From IMG/VR virus record IMGVR_UViG_2703718859_000017: 32,854 nt of DNA. One strand, written 5' to 3'. This stretch comes from a virus. Taxonomy: Duplodnaviria; Heunggongvirae; Uroviricota; Caudoviricetes. The notes under the pieces were generated by a model. The model made no database searches, was not told where the DNA came from, and worked only from the letters and a program-made list of their open reading frames with translations. The translations under genes and the position numbers were made by a program. Of this stretch, positions 1 to 32,854 are shown one piece after another (position 1 is the first letter of the stretch; every line of letters begins with the position of its first letter).

Positions 1-417
1 ATGAGAGTAAGCCCCTACAATGAAAACGAATCTGTAATATTAATTTATTTGCATATTGATTCTTCTGTCAGAAATATAGTCATTGATTCCTTCAGTGAGG
101 TGGGGCTTCAGCCAACTGTGCCCCGTAACTTCTGCCTTGGATCTGGTGATGACAACATTGCCTCATTGATAGTATCTTTACTCAGGGCCAACTCTGTGCT
201 GGTACTGGAGGCGCTGAAGATGATTCTTTCAAGAAAAAAAATTGAAATTGAGGTTGTGCAAAGTGGAACGGCTGATAATCCTGAGACTATTACAAAAATA
301 AAGGTTTCACGCCCGGAGGATCTTGAAGCGTGTGGTGTTATCGTGGAAAAAATTTGTGCTATTCATGCAAAATCAGTTAATACCACTGCCAGTAACGACC
401 ACAATAAATACAACTGA
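1..417 (+). CDS. Partial CDS (5' end outside window), hypothetical protein; AT-rich relative to the prophage
   Basis: ORF track 1..417 is open from the window edge and stops at 415-417. Composition is visibly AT-rich. No recognisable motif. Confidence 0.3.
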   Translation: MRVSPYNENESVILIYLHIDSSVRNIVIDSFSEVGLQPTVPRNFCLGSGDDNIASLIVSLLRANSVLVLEALKMILSRKKIEIEVVQSGTADNPETITKIKVSRPEDLEACGVIVEKICAIHAKSVNTTASNDHNKYN

Positions 418-424
418 ATAAAAA

Positions 425-442
425 GGCCCGCATGTCGCGGGC
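425..442 (-). terminator. GC-rich hairpin (6-bp stem GCCCGC/GCGGGC, 5-nt loop) followed by a T-run on the minus strand; candidate intrinsic terminator
   Basis: Read directly: ggcccgcatgtcgcgggc flanked by an A-run on plus, which is a U-run on the minus-strand RNA. Confidence 0.35.
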
Positions 443-908
443 AAATACGTCTGTAATCCAACGGAGAAAGGGTGCCATATCGACCGAACCCGGCAACCGG
501 ATAGCGGGGGCTTTCACCCCCGCTGCGGTTTCTTACTGTTTACACTGCAAGAACGCCGCAAATTCTGACCACATGATGTTAAGCCTGAACTCACACGGTG
601 ACTTGTGTATCATCCAGACAATCATCAAAATAGTTATGCATAAAATGCTCACTATGATCGTTTTTTGCGGCATAGCGCTTGACTCCTTTTACAGGGAGGC
701 GCTAACCTTCCACTTGCGAGGTAGATGGGTTAGGGCCTCGGGTTAAACAAATGTTTGACTCGGGGCCTTTCCACATCCGGCCTTCAGGTAATCCTTCCAG
801 CCGTCAGCCGAAAGGCACCCGCGCGTAATTTACCTTTTACGTCCGTTACGTGCAACGGATGACGTGGCTGTTTTTCCTTCCCCTTCGCCATCCTTTTTCG
901 GAGCAGTT

Positions 909-1129
909 GTGCAAAAGTGTGCAAAAGTGATTTTTGCTGCCACTCCCCGCCAGGCCGCGCCAGTTCTGGCTTTCCTGATTTTTTCGTTTTCGTTGTCGGA
1001 TCCTTTTTCAGATCTTCGATCGTGACGTAATTTTAAAAATCTCTTGTTATTCAGTGCATTAAAATTTTTCGGGATCCTCAGAAAGCCGGAGTTTTTGCAC
1101 ACTTTTGCAAAACCTTGCACAAAGTGCAA
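909..1129. repeat. 17-bp perfect inverted repeat pair (TGCAAAAGTGTGCAAAA at 910-926; reverse complement at 1093-1109), with tandem GTGCAAAAGT x2 at 909-928 and palindrome TTGCAC-AAA-GTGCAA at 1115-1129
   Basis: Read directly from the sequence. Coordinates anchored to ORF-track start 1105 (TTG). No convincing ORF between the repeats. Confidence 0.5.
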
Positions 1130-1244
1130 AACCATTCAGAAGGGAAAACCTCAGTAATGGCGCGCCCTGGCGGGGTGTTTTGCACCCCTTTCGATTTGCA
1201 AAATTTATCGTACACAAATACCGGAGGCGTGTGCGGGGTAGCGC

Positions 1245-1412
1245 CGATTACGTCACTTTACGCGTTACGTCGCCGCCGAAAATTTCCGGCCATTTGCGGC
1301 GATTTTGGGGCGCAGAAATCGTTTTCTGATGTCAGGGGATCGAATCGGGCTGGCGGGGTTATCTCTTCGTTACGTGGCGTTACGCGACGTTTTACGTGGG
1401 GATTACGTGGGG
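1245..1412. repeat. Cluster of TTACGYG / ACGTAA motifs, including four direct copies at about 11-bp spacing in 1369-1412; iteron-like array
   Basis: Read directly: cgttacgtggcg, ttacgcgacg, tttacgtgggg, attacgtggggcg. Further copies near 1247-1270, 1020-1030 and 825-850. Confidence 0.45.
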
Positions 1413-1498: not shown

Positions 1499-1523
1499 TA
1501 AAAAAGGCCACATTGCGCGGCCT
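1499..1523 (-). terminator. Candidate intrinsic terminator just downstream of the last tail-operon gene (AGGCC stem, 9-nt loop, then T6 on minus strand)
   Basis: Reverse complement reads aggccgcgcaatgtggcc followed by ttttttat, directly after the stop at 1538-1540. Confidence 0.4.
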
Positions 1524-1537
1524 GTTAAAATGAATAA

Positions 1538-3211
1538 CTATTCGATTATTGGCGAATATTTATTTTTTAGCTGGCGGCACTCCTGAGCGACCTGGCTGAA
1601 CTGTGCGGCCTGCGGAGACGTGCCCGTTTTTGGGTGGGTATGTGATGCTGTAATATCTGCCAGCTCTTCCACCACATCGGCAAGGTCCGTCAGCATGGTC
1701 AGTACATTAATGCCCTCGTTTCCCAGCTTCACCGTATCGCCAACCAGCTTCTGCGCCAGCGCAATACTGTGACGGACGCCCTTAATCTTTTCGGTAAGGC
1801 TGCCGCCCACGGTGTCCAGGGTGTCGCCTTCCACGTCGCGCTCACAGGTACCGGCAACCACCATCATGTGTCCGCCCGTGCTGATGCTGTAGCTCTCTTC
1901 AGTGATATGGGTGACCGCGCCAGCCTGAAGCGTGGATACGCCCAGGACGGTGGTTGTGTCGGTTGCCTGTATGGTGGTCTCCCGGCTGGTCAGGCTCCGC
2001 GTTTCCTCGTCTGCGCTCACCACGCGCTCGCGTGATGTCTCCTGTATCCGCTGGTCTGTCTGGCGCTCCCAGTCTCCGGCGACCGTCACGCGCTGCGATA
2101 CGCCGTCGCGCTGTTGCTGCAACTGCTCGCCCGGCTTCACGTCGGGCAGATTGTGGCCCTCTGCCATTATCTGGCGGATGAAGGGCTTATCCGCCCGGCC
2201 TTCCACAAATCCCACTTCCACCAGGGTTCCGGGCGGCGGGAACTGGAACATGCCGGACTCACTGCCCGCCATGGGAACGGGGAGGGGAACGGCGTTATAA
2301 ACGGGCGTATCCGCTGCCGGGTTGCCGTTCTCGTCAAGCAGCTGGAGATTCACCGCGTAGCGGGGTCTGAACGGGTCGGCAATATTGCCCGCGCTGACGG
2401 CTTCGGTCGGCGCCTCAACACGTGCCAGTTTGGGCAGGTGAAGCCCTGATGCCAGTTCAGGGAAGGCCTTTTCAGCCTGGCGACGGAAAGGGGACTTCTG
2501 GAGGGGAGCGCCGGTGGCTTTATTGCGCGGTGTCCACGTGATGGTCATGTTGTCATCTTCCAGCATGACCATCGTCAGGCGCTGACCGTTCACCTCCACA
2601 CCCGGTCGCAGCGTCTGAATCATCGGGAGGGTCATACTGTGCCCGCCCGTTGATGCCTGGCTGAACTCGTGCGGGATGGTGACGGGGCGACCGGAAAACA
2701 TCCCCTGCGCGGCAGCAGCGGCCATAATGCCGCCGTCCGGTAACGGATGCCAGATGTAATCCGGTACGGAGAAAATACGCCCCAGACTGGCCAGCAGTTC
2801 GTAGCCCGTGCCGCTGTGTGTGAAATGCGGAACGGGTCTGTCAGTGTAAGCCGCGTTGTCCGGCAGGATGATTTCCAGCCCGCTGGTCTCACTCAGCCAC
2901 TGTGTGACCGTGCGCATTGTCGGGTGCTGAAATGAACAGGGGAAGGGGTGATCAAGGATCCCCGCCATTTCACGAATCAGAAGCCGCACCGAGCCGTTTT
3001 CAGCGGGCTGGCTGCGTTCAACGTATCCGGTAAACCAGCGCACCAGGTCGTTTCCGTATCCGATATCGAGACGAACGGGGCGCCCGGTGTAGTTCTGCTC
3101 TGTTCTGGCCGTGATAAATCCGCGTCCGCACGCGTTCAGCTCAAGCATGACGGAACAACTGACCAGCTGAATGGTGTCGTTACCCAGTAACAGACGTTTA
3201 GTGGGGTTCAT
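1538..3211 (-). CDS. Tail-operon distal protein (557 aa); possible baseplate hub/spike-like component, function not established
   Basis: ORF track. Last gene of the tail operon before the terminator. C-terminal half has repetitive beta-rich character; no hub or spike gene is otherwise recognisable in the tail module. Identity is inference. Confidence 0.3.
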   Translation of the reverse strand: MNPTKRLLLGNDTIQLVSCSVMLELNACGRGFITARTEQNYTGRPVRLDIGYGNDLVRWFTGYVERSQPAENGSVRLLIREMAGILDHPFPCSFQHPTMRTVTQWLSETSGLEIILPDNAAYTDRPVPHFTHSGTGYELLASLGRIFSVPDYIWHPLPDGGIMAAAAAQGMFSGRPVTIPHEFSQASTGGHSMTLPMIQTLRPGVEVNGQRLTMVMLEDDNMTITWTPRNKATGAPLQKSPFRRQAEKAFPELASGLHLPKLARVEAPTEAVSAGNIADPFRPRYAVNLQLLDENGNPAADTPVYNAVPLPVPMAGSESGMFQFPPPGTLVEVGFVEGRADKPFIRQIMAEGHNLPDVKPGEQLQQQRDGVSQRVTVAGDWERQTDQRIQETSRERVVSADEETRSLTSRETTIQATDTTTVLGVSTLQAGAVTHITEESYSISTGGHMMVVAGTCERDVEGDTLDTVGGSLTEKIKGVRHSIALAQKLVGDTVKLGNEGINVLTMLTDLADVVEELADITASHTHPKTGTSPQAAQFSQVAQECRQLKNKYSPIIE

Positions 3212-17095: not shown

Positions 17096-17794
17096 TTACG
17101 CTGCATTAAGGGCGCTGATGCGTGCCCTGATGCGCGCCCTGATACTTTTTACGCCAGCGGTACGGCTCAGTGCTGCCGCCTGTGCCAGGTATGCGTCTGC
17201 CTTTTCCAGTACGGCAGTATCATTAATCGCGGTGGCTCTCGGTTTGCCCGCCTCGTCGCGCAGAAGATACAGCCCGGCAAATCTGAACCACTTCGCGCGG
17301 ATTTCCTCATGCAGTCGCCACGTGGTGGTGACGTTCCTGAAGGTGCGCGAAAAATACGGCTCTATGCTGTGTCCGGCCTCGCTGTTGTCGGTGGCCCACT
17401 GCAGCACCGTGTCGGCCACGAAGGCGGGCAGGGTGCTGCGGAAGTTGTCCGGCGTGGCCTGGCCTTCACTGATGGCAATGTCTGCCCAGTCAAGGGCGCG
17501 ACTCAGGTCGCCCGTGTCGAACAGCCAGATGATGCAGTACACCAGTACCGGGCAGGCGTGGCGCTTTCCGTCAGCGATATAGCGCTCCGCGACGGGCAGC
17601 CAGCGCGGCAGGAGAATGTCGTGCTTGAACGCCAGCCGCTCTTCGCGGACAGGAAGACTGCGCAGCCGTGCCACATCGCGATCAAGCTCCGCGCGTAACA
17701 GGTGGAAGCTGACCGGGGAGGCCGTCAGCGCTTCCCGGCGTTCGAGTGCCTCCTGTGTGCGGATTTTCGCCCGGTGTCGCTGGCAGGGTGTCAT
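17096..17794 (-). CDS. M: Terminase small (endonuclease) subunit, P2 gpM-like
   Basis: 232 aa ORF between capsid N and head completion L. P2 head-gene order O-N-M-L is conserved. Confidence 0.7.
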   Translation of the reverse strand: MTPCQRHRAKIRTQEALERREALTASPVSFHLLRAELDRDVARLRSLPVREERLAFKHDILLPRWLPVAERYIADGKRHACPVLVYCIIWLFDTGDLSRALDWADIAISEGQATPDNFRSTLPAFVADTVLQWATDNSEAGHSIEPYFSRTFRNVTTTWRLHEEIRAKWFRFAGLYLLRDEAGKPRATAINDTAVLEKADAYLAQAAALSRTAGVKSIRARIRARISALNAA

Positions 17795-20046: not shown

Positions 20047-21873
20047 ATGCGCCGCCATAATGGGCGCATGGCTAAATATTCTGACGAAATCAAAGAGGCG
20101 GCGCGATCGCTTTACCTGAAGCGGTGGCACCCCCGCGATATTGCGGCGGAACTCGGTATTCCGCCGCGCACGGTTTACCACTGGTGTGATGTGGGGCAGT
20201 GGGCTGCCCTGCTGCCCGCTGAATCCGTTGAGGACGTGATCGCCCGGCGTATTGATGTTCTGACCGGACGGGAGGGCAAGACAGAGTGTGAACTTGCCGA
20301 ACTGCGTGAACTTATCGCGCAGCACGTGAAGATCATCGCCCAGAAAAACAAACATGCTGAAAGGATGGCGGAAATTGCCGCCCTGCGTCCGGCAGGGTAT
20401 GAGGACGGCGCGGCTGCGGGGACCTGCGGCGGGGGAGAAGGGAAAAAGCGGCGCTACCGGAAAAACGACGTTTCCGGACTGACTGCTGAAATGCTGGATG
20501 AATGGGCGCGTAAAAATCTTTATGCCTACCAGCTGCACTGCCGCGAGAACCGGCACCGTGAGCGCCGTTTCATCCTCAAGAGCCGCCAGATCGGCATGAC
20601 CTGGTATTTTGCATGGGAGGCGTTCGAAGATGCGGTGGTGACTGGTGATAACCAGATTTTCTTTTCTGCGTCACGGGTACAGGCGGAAATCTTTCGTGAA
20701 TATATTATTAACTTCGCCCTGCAGTTCGGGATCACGCTCACGGGTAAGCATATCCGTCTGAGCAATGGTGCAATGCTGCGTTTCCTGTCCACCAATGCCA
20801 GTACCGCCCAGGGATTTAACGGCCACCTTTACGGCGATGAGGTGTTCTGGATCCCAAAATTCACGCGACTGCATGAAGTGGCCTCGGCAATGGCGACCCA
20901 CGACAAATACCGCACGACGTATTTTTCCACACCCAGCGCCAAAACCCACCAGGCTTATCTGGTCTGGAATGGTGACGACTGGCGCGGGGATGATCCGGCG
21001 CGTCGTGCTGTTGAGTTTCCGAAAGAAAGCGCGATGCGTGTGGGCTGTGAATGCCCTGACGGGATCTGGCGCTACATTATCCGGCTGGAAGAGGCGGTGG
21101 CGGGTGGCCTGTCTGCACGGGTTGATATTGAACGTATCAGGAACCGCTACAACCCGACCACTTACGCGATGCTGTACGGCTGCGAGTTTGTTGACAGCAA
21201 GGATGCGGTATTTAAGTTCTCCGAACTGGTCAGGTGTGAGGTGGAGATGGAGACGTGGGGTGACTACGATCCCACGGCGGCACGTCCGTTCGGCAATCGT
21301 GAGGTGTGGGCGGGCTTTGACCCGTCAAGGTCCGGGGATAATTCCACGTTTGTGATTGTGGCCCCGCCTGTCCATGAGGGCGAGCGGTTCCGTGTGCTCG
21401 CTGTCTGGCAGTGGCAGGGATTTAACTTCACCTGGCAGGCCGATCAGATCCGCGAACTGATGCAGCGCTTTAACATTACCTATATCGGCATAGATATCAC
21501 CGGTATCGGGAAAGGGGTGTTTGATATCGTCAGTCGCTTTGCGCCACGTGAGGCTAACGCCATTCTTTACAGCGTGGAGAGCAAAAACCGCCTGGTGATG
21601 AAAATGATAGACGTGGTGGCCCATAAGCGTATCGAGTGGGCGAAAGACGCCATTGATGAGGCCAGCCGTGAACGCACGGAGATCCCCGCGTCGTTCATGT
21701 CCATACGCCGCACCACCACAAAAAGCGGTAACGCGCTGACGTTCGTGGCGGAACGGTCGGATGTTACGGGGCATGCGGATGTGTTTTTTGCCATTTCGCA
21801 CGCCGTGATTAATGAGCCTGTAGATTATGACTATGAACGCCCGTCCACATGGGCCTTCGGGAAAGCCGCATGA
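20047..21873 (+). CDS. P: Terminase large (ATPase) subunit, P2 gpP-like
   Basis: 608 aa ORF divergent from O and followed by the portal gene with an ATGA overlap. Alternative start at 20068. Confidence 0.85.
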   Translation: MRRHNGRMAKYSDEIKEAARSLYLKRWHPRDIAAELGIPPRTVYHWCDVGQWAALLPAESVEDVIARRIDVLTGREGKTECELAELRELIAQHVKIIAQKNKHAERMAEIAALRPAGYEDGAAAGTCGGGEGKKRRYRKNDVSGLTAEMLDEWARKNLYAYQLHCRENRHRERRFILKSRQIGMTWYFAWEAFEDAVVTGDNQIFFSASRVQAEIFREYIINFALQFGITLTGKHIRLSNGAMLRFLSTNASTAQGFNGHLYGDEVFWIPKFTRLHEVASAMATHDKYRTTYFSTPSAKTHQAYLVWNGDDWRGDDPARRAVEFPKESAMRVGCECPDGIWRYIIRLEEAVAGGLSARVDIERIRNRYNPTTYAMLYGCEFVDSKDAVFKFSELVRCEVEMETWGDYDPTAARPFGNREVWAGFDPSRSGDNSTFVIVAPPVHEGERFRVLAVWQWQGFNFTWQADQIRELMQRFNITYIGIDITGIGKGVFDIVSRFAPREANAILYSVESKNRLVMKMIDVVAHKRIEWAKDAIDEASRERTEIPASFMSIRRTTTKSGNALTFVAERSDVTGHADVFFAISHAVINEPVDYDYERPSTWAFGKAA

Positions 21874-22959: not shown

Positions 22960-23223
22960 ATGCGGATTTTTAAAGCCCGGTGTCCTGACTGTGGCGCACC
23001 TGCTGTCATCCGGAAGACAGACTGGAAAACCCCTGAACTTGCGGATCTGTACTGTGCATGCAGTGATGTCGAATGCGGGCATACCTTCGTCTGTACGATG
23101 ACCTTTTCCCATACCCTCAGCCCCGGCGCCCGCTCCGGTCGCAATATGGTGAAGTTTCTTGTTGATGCCATGCGCCCGGAAGATCGCCGGTATGCACTTG
23201 AACTTCTGTCGCGGCGTTCCTGA
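22960..23223 (+). CDS. ogr: Ogr/Delta-family zinc-finger late transcription activator
   Basis: 87 aa from ATG 22960 (GGAGG SD at 22951-22955). Cys pattern C-X2-C-X22-C-X4-C (CPDC ... CSDVEC) matches the Ogr zinc finger. Confidence 0.75.
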   Translation: MRIFKARCPDCGAPAVIRKTDWKTPELADLYCACSDVECGHTFVCTMTFSHTLSPGARSGRNMVKFLVDAMRPEDRRYALELLSRRS

Positions 23224-24307: not shown

Positions 24308-24712
24308 TTACCTGCGTGATTGTCTGCCAGCGGCTGAATGCACATAGCGGGCAATTGCCGCTTTGCGGTTAATCGTGACCAGTGTTCTGGTGAGTTCTGC
24401 GTTGTGTTTGTGTGCCTGCTCTTCGTGGTACTGCCGCATGATTTTTCCGGCAGGCGTGAGCGGCTCCGGCTCTCCGGGCGGACGGCGCGGACGAACGGCG
24501 ACAAGCCAGCTGCGGTTGGTGCTGTCCGGTCGTCCGTTGAGTATGTCGGTGATGATGGCCGTGGTGGTGCGATCGGGACTGACGACCGTGATTTCCAGCT
24601 CATCGCCCGGTTGTGGTCCCATGGCAATGTTGTTCAGGGTCAGTAAGGGCGTGCGCTGGCGCATCATTTCGTCAAAGCGCTGGCGCTGCATGGCGCAATA
24701 AAAGCGGGTCAT
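24308..24712 (-). CDS. Hypothetical protein (134 aa) translationally coupled to the 3' end of gene A
   Basis: ORF track. Start overlaps the A stop. Occupies the position of P2 orf91. Confidence 0.4.
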   Translation of the reverse strand: MTRFYCAMQRQRFDEMMRQRTPLLTLNNIAMGPQPGDELEITVVSPDRTTTAIITDILNGRPDSTNRSWLVAVRPRRPPGEPEPLTPAGKIMRQYHEEQAHKHNAELTRTLVTINRKAAIARYVHSAAGRQSRR

Positions 24713-27228
24713 TGTGGCGCCTCCGTATTCGGTGCGGGAGTGATATCAATGCGGCGGGTGCTGTCATTCCAGTACGCGGTGCGCCCGTCAGCCAGGCGCA
24801 CGCGGGCACCGTGACGGACGGAAACGACGGCGCTTTCATGCAGCTGCACGCCCAGCGCATCAAGCTCACGGGTGATTTGTGCGGTGATGTGTGGCTCAGC
24901 GGTCAGTGCGACACTCACGCGAACGCCGCCAGCGGGCGCACTGATGCCGCCGTTTTTCACGGTTTCCGTGTCAGGTGGCGGGTTTTTCAGCTGCCTGGTG
25001 AGTTGTTTTCGCTCTGTGGGGGTCAGTGACCTTAACCATTCACCCAAATCACCTTCCGGCAGGGTAAGTCGCTGCTCCCTGCGTCCGTCCGGCTGCCTTT
25101 CTGGCGGGTCGTTTATGGTCAGATTCTGGTCAGGGGGACAGTTATTGCCACGAGTCCAAGGTGCGGCAAAGCCGCACTCAACGTCAAAACCCTCGTCCGT
25201 GCGGTCTTCGTTTTCCGGCTTGCGTCTGACCAGTTTCCAGGTGTCCGGGTGGGTGCATATGGTGTAGCGCTCCCCGAGTGACGGGGCGCGGACGCCGTAA
25301 ATGCGTTGCGGGAATTCGCCGTAGTCGTTGGCCTCTTCGGCAGTTTCGTATGCGGTGCGGACCAGGTACGTGTTGCGGGGAATGAGCACACCACCCTGGC
25401 GGGTGATATAGGTGGCAAAACATCCCACGTCGGCGGCGGCCAGTATGGCGTCAATGTCGTCATGGTCCAGACGCTGCGGGGCAGTCGGGTTACGGGCCAT
25501 CTGCCCGGCAAGGCGGCGGAGTTCGCGCCATACCTGGCGGGGCGGGATACCGAAGAACTGGAACTGGCGGATGCGGTGAAGGGCCGCCCAGCCGATGGCG
25601 TTCTCCACGGTTTCGGCCATGGTTTTGCCTGATTCCTTATCGACGTAAGGTTTGCCGGTTTTCGGGTCATTCCCCATGAAGGCGCTGGCGTCCAGGTTCT
25701 TACCGATATAGGTCGCGATATAGCTTGCCGGTGTGCCTTTTGCCGGGTCGATTTTTTCGCATTTAAAACGCGGGGAGATATCATCACCCAGCTCTGCGCG
25801 GTCCTCCCTGATGGCGGCGTTGCGCATGATTTCAGTGATACGGGCTTCGTTTTCCGGGCTGGTGAATACCAGCATGTGCCAGTGCGGTGTACCGTCGTGG
25901 TGGGGCTCTACTGTGCGCACGCCGTACCAGCCCAGCCCGGCCTTGTTGATGGCCTTGCGGACGGCGGCGAAAAAGCGGTAAACCAGATAATCACTGGCAT
26001 CACGTACCGTTGCCCCGCAGTATTTCGGGTTCAGACTGCCGTCATCGTTCACGCTGTGAAAACGGGAAGGGGCTGTGACGGTGACGAAAAACGCCACGTC
26101 GCCGCGTGCTTCGGCGACCTGCTCCATCCCCCGGACGCAGGCCATCATCTCGTTACGGCGGTTACGCGGATTAGAGAGACCTGCCCAGTAGATATCCTCA
26201 AGGCTGAACCGTTCTCCTTCTTCGTTCTCGATGTCCCAGGCCTTCAGAAAATCGCGGGTGCGCTGGCGTTTTTCGCGCCAGTCCAGTAACGCTTCATGGC
26301 TGATATATATCGATGTCTTACGTGACACCAGACCTGCGGCGCGTAACAGCTCTTCACGCCAGATGTCCCGGAGGTGTCTTAACTGACTGTTCCACCATGT
26401 CGCACAGGAAAGGCGCATGACCGCACCCGGCACCTGTTCCGGGTCGGGGGCGGTGCGGCGGTCGGGCCTGATTTCCAGCGACGGCCAGCAGGGTGGCGTG
26501 ATACCCAGTTTTAACGCCATGTGTGCCAGTGGCTGGTAGGTCAGTAACCAGGTGAACAGGTCATCGTCACCCCTGCCGGTCTTTTCGATGACCTCATCAC
26601 ATGCGCGCTCCAGTGCGGTGGAAAACGCGGTGGCGGTCAGGGTGGCAAGGCGCTGGATTTCGTCACGGCTCAGCTGCGGCAGCATAAGCAGTTCATCCAG
26701 CCGTTCGCGTGCGGCGGTGGCCTTAAAGGCCGGGGTGGCAAAGCGTTCATTCACACGGGCGATACGTTTCAGGCGGGCACGCAGCCCGTGACGAACGAAG
26801 TTATCCGCCGCGTATGCGCTGTTGTTCTTAAGCCCTTCCCGGCGTGCGCTCTCCTGTTTGCGGCTCAGGCGTGCCAGGTCACGGATGAGCGGACCGGCAA
26901 GAAACGGCGGAAGGGCGCGCAGCTCTGCCATGGCTTCAGATACCAGTGTTGGCGGATTCTCGTGTTTGTGCCGCGCCAGTTTTTCCAGCCTGATCCGACG
27001 CTCTTCGTCGTGGTGAAGATGCGAATTAATTCGCTTGCCTTCGTCTGTGTTTGTCAGGAAGTCGACGGTCTCTTCATCCAGTCTTGCATCAATGCGAATG
27101 TCTTCGTTGATGTAGCTCTGAATGGCCTGGCGTAATGCGGTTGGTTGCGCTCTGCCGAACGTTTCAGGATCGATAACCGGTAGCGGGGCGTTCCACGGGT
27201 ACGCCAGCTGTGCATTGTGGTCACTCAT
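24709..27228 (-). CDS. A: Rolling-circle replication initiator (P2 gpA-like HUH endonuclease)
   Basis: ORF track 24709..27237 begins GTG; ATG at 27228 overlaps the upstream ORF stop (ATGA). Contains TPHWHMLVF (HUH motif) and YIATYIGK (active-site tyrosines). About 840 aa. Confidence 0.85.
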   Translation of the reverse strand: MSDHNAQLAYPWNAPLPVIDPETFGRAQPTALRQAIQSYINEDIRIDARLDEETVDFLTNTDEGKRINSHLHHDEERRIRLEKLARHKHENPPTLVSEAMAELRALPPFLAGPLIRDLARLSRKQESARREGLKNNSAYAADNFVRHGLRARLKRIARVNERFATPAFKATAARERLDELLMLPQLSRDEIQRLATLTATAFSTALERACDEVIEKTGRGDDDLFTWLLTYQPLAHMALKLGITPPCWPSLEIRPDRRTAPDPEQVPGAVMRLSCATWWNSQLRHLRDIWREELLRAAGLVSRKTSIYISHEALLDWREKRQRTRDFLKAWDIENEEGERFSLEDIYWAGLSNPRNRRNEMMACVRGMEQVAEARGDVAFFVTVTAPSRFHSVNDDGSLNPKYCGATVRDASDYLVYRFFAAVRKAINKAGLGWYGVRTVEPHHDGTPHWHMLVFTSPENEARITEIMRNAAIREDRAELGDDISPRFKCEKIDPAKGTPASYIATYIGKNLDASAFMGNDPKTGKPYVDKESGKTMAETVENAIGWAALHRIRQFQFFGIPPRQVWRELRRLAGQMARNPTAPQRLDHDDIDAILAAADVGCFATYITRQGGVLIPRNTYLVRTAYETAEEANDYGEFPQRIYGVRAPSLGERYTICTHPDTWKLVRRKPENEDRTDEGFDVECGFAAPWTRGNNCPPDQNLTINDPPERQPDGRREQRLTLPEGDLGEWLRSLTPTERKQLTRQLKNPPPDTETVKNGGISAPAGGVRVSVALTAEPHITAQITRELDALGVQLHESAVVSVRHGARVRLADGRTAYWNDSTRRIDITPAPNTEAPQ

Positions 27229-27641
27229 GCGTCGCACTCCCCGGCAGTCGCCGCCTGAAACGCCGCGCGGTACAGCACGAGAAGGCGCTGGTATTCACCG
27301 ATAAAGTCTTCTGCGGTGTATATGCCTTTCACGGCCACGCTGTGCGTTGTCATTTCCAGCACAAGCGCCATCTCTGACGACGACCAGTTGATGGCGGTGC
27401 TGTCGGTTCCGTTGATGTGAAATAAACCAAAACCATCACCATCACCTTTCACGTCCACGCGGTAACGGTCGTCAACGGTGAAGGAGAAATCCCCGTATGT
27501 GGTGACGCGTCTGGTGGCCTGTTTACAGGCGCGGCGGTAATAGTCGTGCCAGTCGTTCAGGCGGGAAGCCAGCCGGGGATCCACTGCCCACATCCAGTTA
27601 AAAAAGTCCTGAATATCTGAAAGTCCCTTAACGCTCTTCAT
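27225..27641 (-). CDS. Hypothetical protein (138 aa) coupled to the start of A
   Basis: ORF track. Stop overlaps the A start codon. No recognisable motif. Confidence 0.45.
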   Translation of the reverse strand: MKSVKGLSDIQDFFNWMWAVDPRLASRLNDWHDYYRRACKQATRRVTTYGDFSFTVDDRYRVDVKGDGDGFGLFHINGTDSTAINWSSSEMALVLEMTTHSVAVKGIYTAEDFIGEYQRLLVLYRAAFQAATAGECDA

Positions 27642-27709
27642 GAGAACCTCCGGTAACAGACGTGCGGAAGCCTCCCGCGCACGGGTGCGGGATGGCTTCA
27701 GGATGTTGT

Positions 27710-27937
27710 TTAGTGGTGGTGTTGCTGGTTGATAAGGTCCTGCAGTTCTGCCAGGTCATCCGCCAGGTAGCTGAAGACGGCGGCGTAATACCCGGCAGCG
27801 ATACCATCGTTAAGTCGGTGTAATGCGTTTGACTGCATGATGAAGGTGACAGATGCAGCCCGATGGAGTCTGCGGTTGATTTCAGTGCGGATGTGAAGAC
27901 GCTCAGCGCGGGCGCGCTGTTGTTTGCGGTTTGCCAT
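27710..27937 (-). CDS. Small basic hypothetical protein (75 aa)
   Basis: ORF track. ATG 27937 with AAGAGG SD. The SD overlaps the 3' arm of a 9-bp perfect stem in the upstream structured element. Confidence 0.45.
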   Translation of the reverse strand: MANRKQQRARAERLHIRTEINRRLHRAASVTFIMQSNALHRLNDGIAAGYYAAVFSYLADDLAELQDLINQQHHH

Positions 27938-28257
27938 GGTGTTTGGCCTCTTGTAGTAAGTTCTGAAAACTCACCAACCCGAGGTTCCAAGCTCAGGGTG
28001 GCGAGACGTACAGGGTTGGAACTACCGGCTACAAGAGATCCCGGCCCGACCGAAGTCGGCCCCGTACGCCCCGCCATAATTCTGACGCGAAAAAGACGTG
28101 GCGATACAGTACGCACAAAAAAACCGCTGGCGCGGTTGTGCGCTCTTGTAGTCGGCGGGGTTCCAATCCCGGCACCCGTTTTATGAGGTGCGGGAAAACT
28201 GTAACCCGACCAGGCGAACGCTGGCAAGCGGTTTTTTTGTGTGTGCATGATGATCAC
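27938..28257. other. Structured GC-rich intergenic element with nested inverted and direct repeats (CTCTTGTAG at 27948-27956 and 28143-28151, reverse complement at 28029-28037; GGTTCCAA at 27983-27990 and 28159-28166, reverse complement at 28016-28022); candidate cis-regulatory RNA or ncRNA
   Basis: Read directly from the sequence. The only track ORF here (27628..28257, 209 aa) is low-complexity and judged spurious. Confidence 0.4.
28117..28137 (-). terminator. Intrinsic terminator on the minus strand inside the structured element (stem AACCGC/GCGGTT, loop GCCA, then U-run)
   Basis: Minus strand reads aaccgcgccagcggtt followed by ttttt, about 120 nt downstream of the ORF183 stop. Confidence 0.45.
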
Positions 28258-31792: not shown

Positions 31793-31858
31793 CGGTCCAT
31801 CTGGCCTTTATTTCTCAAAATTGTGATCAAGATGATGTTTTCATTGGGGGGCTTCCTT

Positions 31859-32854
31859 ATGTCGATTAAGAAGCTCGCTGATGGCAAATACTGTGTGGAC
31901 GTGCGGCCTGCTGGATCTGAAGGAAGAAGATTTCGGCGGCGATTTCCTACCCGTGGTGAAGCGGCGATGTATGAACGCCATGTTCTGACTCATTATCACG
32001 ATAAGGACTGGGTCGAAAAACCTATTGAACGTAAAGCGTTAAGCGATCTTCTGGAACTGTGGTGGGTGTACCACGGTAAGAATCATCGTTATGGCGCGAT
32101 GAATCGGGTCAGAATTGAAGCGGTTCTTCGTGATATGCAAGAGCTTGGTATTAACAGAAGTGACCACTTAACCCGAAAAAATATTATCAGATATCGCCTT
32201 GAATTAATGAATCGCGGAATTAAGCAGTCAACGGTAAATCGTTATTGTGCAATGATGAGCGGTTTCTTTGAAAAGCTGATTGATGTTGAAGAGTTTGTGG
32301 GTGATAACCCGTTTCACGAGATACGCAAGCTAACAATTAATCAGCCGGAAATGGCTTATCTTGCACATGATGATATTCCCAGGCTAACCGCACTTTTATC
32401 TGGCGATAATCTTAAGGCTGTATTGTTAAGCCTGGCTACAGGCGGGCGCTGGGGTGAAGTTGCCAATATTAAAGGTGAACACATAATTGGTGGGAAGGTT
32501 ATTTTCATGGAGACAAAGAATGGATCGCGGCGGGTTATTCCTATAGCTAAAGATCTTGAATCTCTGATTAAAGTCAAAGCGACGGGAAGATTAATGAACC
32601 CCAGTTATGCGATAGTCAGAAGTGCAATAAGGACTGTGCGGCCTGATTTACCAGTCGGTCAGTCTGTGCATGTTTTACGGCACACATTCGCAACTCATTT
32701 CATGATAAATGGAGGGAACATTATTACCCTTCAGCGTATTTTAGGGCACAGCACAATTCAGCAGACAATGACCTATGCGCACTTTGCACCTGATTATCTC
32801 CAGGACGCGGTAAGGTTCAATCCGGTTGCGGAGTTGTCCAGATTTTGCCCATAA
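31859..32854 (+). CDS. int: Tyrosine integrase (P2 Int-like)
   Basis: 331 aa from ATG 31859 (MSIKKLADGKYCVDVRP...). C-terminal HVLRHTFATHFMINGGNIITLQRILGHSTIQQTMTYAHFAPDYLQDA carries the R/H-x-x-R/Y catalytic box and matches remembered P2 Int. Stop is the last codon of the window. Confidence 0.9.
   Translation: MSIKKLADGKYCVDVRPAGSEGRRFRRRFPTRGEAAMYERHVLTHYHDKDWVEKPIERKALSDLLELWWVYHGKNHRYGAMNRVRIEAVLRDMQELGINRSDHLTRKNIIRYRLELMNRGIKQSTVNRYCAMMSGFFEKLIDVEEFVGDNPFHEIRKLTINQPEMAYLAHDDIPRLTALLSGDNLKAVLLSLATGGRWGEVANIKGEHIIGGKVIFMETKNGSRRVIPIAKDLESLIKVKATGRLMNPSYAIVRSAIRTVRPDLPVGQSVHVLRHTFATHFMINGGNIITLQRILGHSTIQQTMTYAHFAPDYLQDAVRFNPVAELSRFCP

Follow-up and report, generated by a model that had tools for sequence, protein, structure and literature searches.

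Why should a perfect 17-bp inverted repeat stand in non-coding DNA near one end of a viral sequence, and what might read it? The window analysed here, meaning the whole stretch of 32,854 nucleotides, contains TGCAAAAGTGTGCAAAA at 910-926 on the plus strand and its exact reverse complement at 1093-1109, with the arms 166 bp apart, as an earlier note on this DNA had described. These two are the sole matches in the window even when three mismatches are allowed (chance expectation 0.10), and a repeat finder extends the arms to 21 nt at 95% (906-926 and 1093-1113). The same note had reported a tandem and a palindrome, and both are there: two tandem copies of the 10-bp unit GTGCAAAAGT fill 909-928, and 1115-1129 reads TTGCAC-AAA-GTGCAA. 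Around this repeat the repeat finder places an outer, larger one, in which 942-968 pairs with 1152-1178 (27 nt at 85%). The short words that make up the repeats are concentrated at the same place; all five copies of GTGCAAAA in the 32.8-kb window fall in 909-1185, and 9 of its 25 copies of TTTGCA lie inside 908-1203. The view that no credible open reading frame lies between the arms is essentially correct, given that the mechanical ORFs over the region (830-1135 on the minus strand, 101 aa; 1115-1459 on the plus strand) have no Pfam match and that no ORF is kept in position or frame among relatives.

The window carries an integrated HP1/P2-like prophage, with an integrase, a gpA replication protein, a P2-type capsid and terminase set and homologs of HP1 ORF34 and orf35. 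The ORF34 homolog is the upstream neighbour of the baseplate gene, and the tail genes lie on the minus strand. The parts of the prophage needed here are:
31823-32854, integrase
24709-27237, gpA-type replication nickase
22960-23223, plus strand, Ogr/Delta zinc-finger gene, directly after the portal gene (37 bp), in the position that cos occupies in P2
17.1-22.9 kb, P2-type capsid, scaffold, portal and terminase genes
1538-3211, minus strand, baseplate protein of 557 aa, homolog of HP1 orf35 (protein homology) and last late gene
1505-1523, minus strand, terminator-like hairpin closing the tail operon, kept at the same position in relatives
466-834, minus strand, hok/sok-type toxin-antisense locus with a Hok-like ORF at 533-673, common to many other E. 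coli prophages

To our knowledge, ogr is not usually described in HP1-like phages. Elsewhere in this prophage, Rfam places a C4 antisense RNA (83 bits, 27994-28081) and isrK (69 bits, 28117-28191) side by side on the minus strand, in the 5' part of a mechanical ORF at 27628-28257 that has weak similarity to Ash/regulator proteins. By sequence, this locus is similar to the c4-controlled antirepressor modules of P1/P7 type, here in an HP1-like prophage; the ORF start has probably been called wrongly.

The late operon and the cargo gene are separated by about 700 bp of non-coding DNA, and the repeats sit there. A DNA comparison of 835-1540 with sequenced phages gave no match, and the sole plasmid match was a 1.2-Mb E. 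coli record. A promoter scan of 400-1700 found none. No Rfam match overlaps the repeats, and the only signal is the sok match next door, which falls below threshold (48 bits versus 59). Relatives fetched via the baseplate protein comprised 80 IMG/VR loci at 58-100% protein identity. Downstream of the baseplate gene they share a non-coding element of about 350 bp (window positions ~888-1255) that contains short T-rich boxes, and conservation ends abruptly past the last box. In E. coli the element occurs at 34 places in 31 of 5426 genomes, with at most two copies per genome, and it follows a phage baseplate gene in every context inspected. The 17-bp repeat itself is present in relatives only as an imperfect two-box repeat, which matches at 12-17 of 18 positions and is on average modestly above shuffled controls. 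Judged by these alignments, the conserved feature is the position of the boxes and not the perfect repeat.

Such a distribution bears directly on the idea, raised in the earlier note, that the arms terminate a small non-autonomous transposable element, and on the related one that the region is a structured RNA or a regulatory region for hok. A perfect 17-bp inverted repeat with no ORF inside and hok/sok beside it would suit either reading. However, the low copy number and the constant place after the baseplate gene are not those of a MITE, and the arms are imperfect in the very relatives that keep the box positions relative to cosN, the predicted cutting site described below. The element is also kept where the cargo is not hok, and neither an Rfam match nor a promoter-like site marks it as RNA or regulatory DNA. 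We find these explanations barely credible.

The repeats had further been placed where the distal prophage boundary should lie, and on this point comparison of junctions in related E. coli genomes gave a different answer. Where the boundary is visible it is about 1 kb or more further left, past hok/sok and other cargo. In E. coli Z1323MEC0001 the same prophage sits between serS and dmsA, with the crossover in the serS terminator (shared CCTGCGGG) and TGTCCA arm repeats at both prophage junctions, and in JNEC-KY202 a window-type left end abuts ytfP about 300 bp to the left of window position 1. By these junctions the repeats are about 1 kb inside the prophage. Cargo is inserted between the box array and att (hok/sok here, AbiH elsewhere) and never between the array and cosN, and it measures 0.9-1.4 kb in this lineage and in AbiH-carrying relatives. 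The hok/sok locus at 466-834 is 79-93% identical to Hok/Gef-annotated loci in Stx phages and P2-like prophages.

The contents of this cos-att slot vary. In the window (1-834) it holds a 138-aa ORF of no known function (phrog_14142) and hok, in Z1323MEC0001 two tandem hok loci, and in SI7-like prophages beside yegQ an AbiH-family abortive-infection gene; the loci compared include L031 6310-7275 and L114 4431-5396. The otherwise near-identical Z1323MEC0001 prophage also has, between ogr and the replication gene, a gene for a YafO-family toxin (L108 15592-16023), and that interval is another variable cargo position.

The proximity to att makes it reasonable to ask whether the boxes are accessory sites of an attP arm, bound by integrase, Cox or a bending protein. 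All HP1-like phages have cos beside attP, and no more than about 80 bp separate the end of the array from the integrase arm repeats in SI7. Against this, the array is intact inside integrated prophages and is held apart from att by the cargo just described. Moreover, the integrase arm motif is a different one (TGTGGAC/TGTCCA) that sits at both junctions, and the immunity/cox switch region has no boxes. An attP role is therefore highly improbable.

The position of the element instead recalls the packaging site of HP1. The HP1 record annotates cosL at 1-9, attP at 251-694 and int at 698-1711, and cos of HP1 and HP2 adjoins attP, not the portal gene as in P2 (Lavigne et al., PMC2771037). The gene order of the window, with the end of the baseplate gene at 1538, the element at 888-1415 and int at the other prophage end, is that of HP1, phiO18P and SI7, which places the element between the orf35-homolog gene and attP/int on the circular map. 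In the virion-sequenced relatives (HP1, HP2, K139, F108, phiO18P, ESSI-2 and SW5) the orf35 homolog ends 160-220 bp from a record end. At the corresponding place the window contains:
1241 to 1226, minus strand, predicted cosN (the cohesive end, a staggered nick), 16-mer CTACCCCGCACACGCC, by homology to annotated phage ends
1248-1272, minus strand, proximal ACGTAA repeats directly upstream of cosN, which here read GTGACGTAATCGGCG up to cosN and in relatives GGACGGAAACGGCG
1370-1408, minus strand, ACGTAA direct repeats in a distal cluster (TTACGT on the plus strand at 1370, 1392 and 1403), on the right-genome-end side of cosN

The cohesive end is identified chiefly through phiO18P, the record of which annotates CTCATCCGCTCCCGCC as both cosL and cosR, at both of its ends. 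CTACCCCGCACACGCC is identical to this 16-nt end at 11 of 16 positions, and the flanks are conserved: CACGGAA repeats lie upstream of the phiO18P end and TGCGGG, TTTTTTGCAAAAG and CCAGACCGCGCCAG follow in that order downstream, the same architecture as in the window. Among the 80 related loci the consensus 16-mer CTACACCGCACCCGCC, with which the conserved element begins, is exact in 65, even though identity in the neighbouring protein is no more than about 60%. In the window and its close kin the sequence is CTACCCCGCACACGCC, which matches the otherwise invariant Salmonella/Cronobacter 16-mer at 14 of 16 positions. Several phage records break at this very sequence. In that of Cronobacter phage ESSI-2, CTACACCGCACCCGC, comprising 15 nt of the 16-mer, is duplicated at both ends; the record of Salmonella phage SW5 ends in GGCGCTACACCGC and starts with GCACCCGCC, so that the break falls inside the 16-mer with a 2-nt overlap; and the SI7 assembly is permuted and is without exactly 7 nt, CTACACC, of the 16-mer (L101 1975-1990, MK972712.1). 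The apparent overhang accordingly differs by record, from a 7-nt gap in SI7 and a 15-nt duplication in ESSI-2 to 16 nt in phiO18P and positions 1-9 in HP1. Another relative, PV94, has 16-nt 5' overhangs (PMC3986222). The cohesive end is handled inconsistently in the records of SI7 (MK972712.1), SW5 (MK972713.1) and ESSI-2 (HQ110083.1), none of which annotates cos, and the SI7/SW5 paper is silent on genome termini.

The repeats that precede the cut are equally concentrated. Six of the ten window matches to TTACGTSR lie in 1023-1410, while 2.5 are expected for the whole window, and ACGGAA/ACGTAA repeats have the same place and orientation in relatives and in HP1, which has both forms upstream of its right end. 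The window further encodes the cognate P2/HP1-type terminase. Taken together, sequence homology gives good support to the region being the cos of an integrated HP1-like, P2-related prophage. It shares with the cos of HP1, HP2, phiO18P and PV94 the position after an orf35-type baseplate gene and before attP/int, a cohesive end homologous to the 16 nt of phiO18P, ACG(G/T)AA repeats preceding the cut and, roughly 40 bp in from the left end, a T-rich box. Its cosN departs from that of phiO18P at 5 of 16 positions and from the Salmonella/Cronobacter consensus at 2 of 16, and its boxes read TTTGCA, as against TTTCA(G) in HP1 and ESSI-2.

A cos of the P2 type was sought beside the portal gene and rejected. 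The cos of P2 is the 19-nt end GGCGAGGCGGGGAAAGCAC, which is absent from the window even at three mismatches, and the ogr-like gene takes the place that adjoins the portal gene in P2. The likeness to P2, 186 and P4 lies in the related terminase family (gpM, gpP) and in the capsid module.

On the other side of cosN the repeats are part of a longer array. Proceeding away from the cut, its components are:
1194-1203 and 1178-1185, unstranded, boxes ATTTGCAAAA and TTTTGCAC at +40 and +57 from cosN (alignment with relatives)
1158-1174, unstranded, proximal copy of a GC-rich motif, GGCGCGCCCTGGCGGGG, with its inverted partner at 945-961
1093-1131, unstranded, four TTTGCA-type boxes with TGCA cores at 1096, 1106, 1116 and 1125, spaced 10, 10 and 9 (repeat finder)
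998-1080, unstranded, A+T-rich centre with four GATC (999, 1011, 1018 and 1073) and one inverted ACGTAA (1025-1030)
945-961, unstranded, distal inverted copy of the GC-rich motif, CCCCGCCAGGCCGCGCC (repeat finder, alignment)
908-928, unstranded, distal two-box arm, GTGCAAAAGT twice, which is the left arm of the 17-mer repeat, at about +318 from cosN (repeat finder, motif search)
888-899, minus strand, AAAAAGGAT motif at the end of the conserved element, where the sequence conservation of relatives ends (alignment)

The right arm of the 17-mer repeat (1093-1109) and the palindrome (1115-1129) both belong to the four-box cluster, the TGCA cores of which are in helical phase. The minus strand reads, in order, baseplate gene, terminator, ACGTAA direct repeats, cosN and an array of about 330 bp, which itself consists of two boxes, the GC-rich motif, four phased boxes, the A+T-rich GATC spacer, the inverted GC-rich motif and two inverted boxes. 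The GC-rich motif of 1158-1174 is kept in phiO18P and in both of the lineages described below, and GGATC and CACGATC of the A+T-rich centre are conserved in relatives.

Hypothetical proteins are annotated over the array in RefSeq/GenBank, namely at 830-1135 (minus strand) in the window, at 20401-20691 in L001, at 5783-6118 in L111 and at 20497-20661 and 20831-21037 in SI7. Because they have no family match and their frames are not conserved in relatives, they are probably spurious. The GATC sites form a cluster of four within 78 bp (999-1076), whereas the window as a whole has one per 281 bp on average, and relatives keep two of the positions. With an N6-adenine methylase gene in the phage (12666-13418) and genes for Dam-family enzymes in relatives, the arrangement recalls how Dam controls P1 pac. 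Two other readings of the boxes were judged by eye and set aside, a sigma-54 promoter, for which the spacing of TTGCAC-N-TTGCA is one base short, and PurR-, Cra- or CytR-like operators, for which the half-site arrangement and central bases misfit the consensus sequences.

The box comparison covered 62 distinct related sequences, with positions anchored on cosN. Boxes occur at +40, at +57, four times between +106 and +152 (the four phased boxes of the window lie around +112 to +141) and in a distal set at +296 to +335. The sequences fall into two types that use the same positions. Type A, with TTGCA boxes, comprises 22 of the 62, namely this phage and the Salmonella SI7-like Irrigatiovirus group; the other 40, type B, are the Cronobacter ESSI-2-like Seongnamvirus group and have TTTCA(G) boxes. 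The types hardly mix, as each sequence has on average 9.0 (A) or 7.3 (B) boxes of its own type versus 0.5 or 0.6 of the other. At +40, 22/22 type-A and 38/40 type-B sequences have a box, and a distal box is found in 22/22 and 37/40, respectively; both lineages have about four boxes in +106 to +152, and in both the distal boxes face the opposite way from the proximal ones. The types do not differ in cosN or in the GC-rich motifs. The ACGTAA motif (ACGGAA in relatives) also differs between lineages, the upstream repeats and the inverted spacer copy at 1025-1030 having changed together. A further 118 loci with the exact 16-mer comprised 106 of type B, 5 of type A, 1 ambiguous but B-like and 6 chance matches in coding DNA. 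HP1 has TTTTTTCAG at about +38, and phiO18P has a TTTTGCAAAAG box at +35.

The one notable property of this cos site is, on these alignments, the two-state box specificity behind an invariant cosN. The protein-binding architecture proposed in the earlier note is thereby borne out indirectly, from sequence patterns: the boxes are clustered and 10-bp phased, their positions are kept in more than 60 sequences and they switch in concert between lineages. That about eight sites change together while cosN and the architecture stay constant points to a phage-encoded reader that co-evolves with the sites.

The same switch weighs on the notion that the array is a replication origin or DnaA cluster, with DnaA-like or iteron repeats around an A+T-rich, GATC-rich unwinding region. 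The relaxed DnaA-box consensus is TTWTNCACA, and TTTTGCACA fits it three times (908-916, 918-926 and 1093-1101), while the centre is A+T-rich with its four GATC. In addition, unrelated viral contigs have ACTTTTGCACA arrays directly after primase-helicase genes. These IMG/VR contigs (L005 3146-3360, L018 2800-2945 and L015 3810-4075) hold 5-8 ACTTTTGCACA or GTGCAAAAGT iterons, which in L005 and L018 immediately follow a gene for a primase-helicase of about 730-750 aa; they look origin-like, and the motif fits the relaxed DnaA consensus. They were, however, retrieved by searching with this 17-mer, so that the resemblance was selected for. Relatives conserve the core TTTGCA(A/G) and not CACA, and TTTCAG takes its place in the sister lineage, so that the conservation is not that of a host DnaA site. 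Furthermore, no initiator gene is adjacent, and the phage replicates via a gpA-type nickase, the origin of which lies within gene A (PMC3986222). We consider an origin very unlikely.

A phage-encoded reader could be sought in the terminase itself, and two subunits are candidates:
17096-17794, minus strand, small terminase subunit of the P2 gpM family (Pfam Phage_term_smal, E=9e-36), candidate box reader
20047-21873, plus strand, large terminase subunit with an N-terminal gpP-like helix-turn-helix (Pfam), predicted cosN nuclease and candidate box reader

The large subunit matches Terminase_5, Terminase_6N and Terminase_6C in Pfam. In the small subunit, residues 1-45 are about 65% identical within type A and 30-41% identical between types, whereas the rest of the protein is 60-70% identical. 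The recognition helix of the large subunit reads PPRT[IV]YHWxDVG in most genomes of the type-A clade, with close variants in a minority, and NxR[IP][IV]YYWA[EQ]K in ESSI-2, HP1, phiO18P and one type-B contig. PhiO18P is a partial exception, as its +35 box is accompanied by a type-B-like helix. When cos type was paired with terminase across IMG/VR contigs, both subunits tracked the lineage, with one type-B contig pairable, and no informative box/terminase recombinant was found among the paired contigs. Because this covariation follows phylogeny, it is no proof of contact and does not separate the small subunit from the large.

Our preferred reading, which we consider probable on the sequence comparisons, is that the repeats are a cosB-like array for terminase recognition and looping in the cos of an HP1-like prophage. 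Because the subunit differences follow phylogeny, with phiO18P in part an exception, we infer rather than conclude that the boxes are bound by terminase, that the spacer forms a loop and that packaging starts from the left end. The side of cosN that carries the array would become the left end of the virion DNA. By analogy with lambda cosB, a DNA-binding domain of terminase would be present in several copies, bound to the phased boxes along a single helical face; it would belong to the small subunit (its N-terminus) or to the large one (its N-terminal helix-turn-helix). Looping or wrapping of the spacer of about 165 bp would then join the proximal and the distal inverted box sets, and the resulting complex would place the nuclease of the large subunit on cosN and may remain on the new left end, from which packaging would start.

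Alternatively, the region could be cos and yet have its boxes read by a non-terminase protein, a phage or host architectural factor acting at the left end in end protection, circularisation after injection or Dam/GATC-timed packaging as at P1 pac. The clustered GATC sites, the conserved GGATC/CGATC positions and the phage N6-adenine methylase suggest methylation control, and the ACG(G/T)AA repeats, which are kept from HP1 to the E. coli phages and stand on either side of cosN, could be the true terminase sites. A conserved host protein is nevertheless hard to reconcile with a concerted change from TTTGCA to TTTCAG in phages whose enteric hosts are closely related. The boxes are confined to this part of the phage genome, and we know of no further DNA-binding protein required for cos cleavage in P2-like phages. 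We regard a non-terminase reader as unlikely. Rather doubtful, too, is a more elaborate version in which the array would be a distinct, lineage-switchable left-end module, for example a large looped complex (about eight sites and a loop of about 165 bp) that couples Dam methylation of the central GATC sites or lineage-specific DnaA binding to the timing of cos cleavage or to post-injection events; in that case the N-terminal helix-turn-helix of the large subunit, and not the small subunit, would determine packaging specificity.

The preferred reading, a cosB-like terminase array, has its closest parallel in lambda cosB (R3-I1-R2-R1), which likewise has its repeated sites to one side of cosN, some of them in inverted orientation beyond a spacer. 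Here about eight boxes extend from +40 to +330 and the distal pair is inverted. In lambda the inverted R sites surround an IHF bend (PMC4669245), whereas the IHF consensus WATCAANNNNTTR has no match in the spacer (930-1090) at up to one mismatch. Lambda cosB is also smaller, 120 bp with three R sites compared with about 330 bp and about eight boxes, and lambda terminase is unrelated to the P2 gpM/gpP type encoded here, the candidate box binder. Lambda and phage 21 have identical cosN and cosQ but differ in cosB and in the recognition helix of the small subunit (PMC4669245), and types A and B resemble this pair in having the same cosN and different accessory sites, matched by differences in terminase segments. 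In N15 an inverted accessory site lies about 200 bp from R3 (PMC4669245). Its 'simple' cosB resembles the present array in having a proximal site and an inverted copy about 170-200 bp away, proposed to be accessory in N15, but N15 rR2 is inside the small-subunit gene, while here both arms are non-coding, have two boxes each and belong to a larger array. As far as we could find, a phased, inverted box array appears not to have been described for HP1-like phages.

In kind the feature is an ordinary one, probably the cosB-like part of an HP1-type cos site. Its recognition explains 700 bp of seemingly empty DNA in a prophage family of E. coli, Salmonella and Cronobacter, and corrects hypothetical-protein annotations that lie over a packaging site. 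With the position of cos fixed, genomes of the family can be oriented, virion ends predicted and satellites that might hijack the terminase spotted, and the cos-att interval is seen to be a cargo slot. DNA recognition by P2/HP1-type terminases is poorly understood, and two box types behind one cutting site provide a natural system for their packaging specificity.
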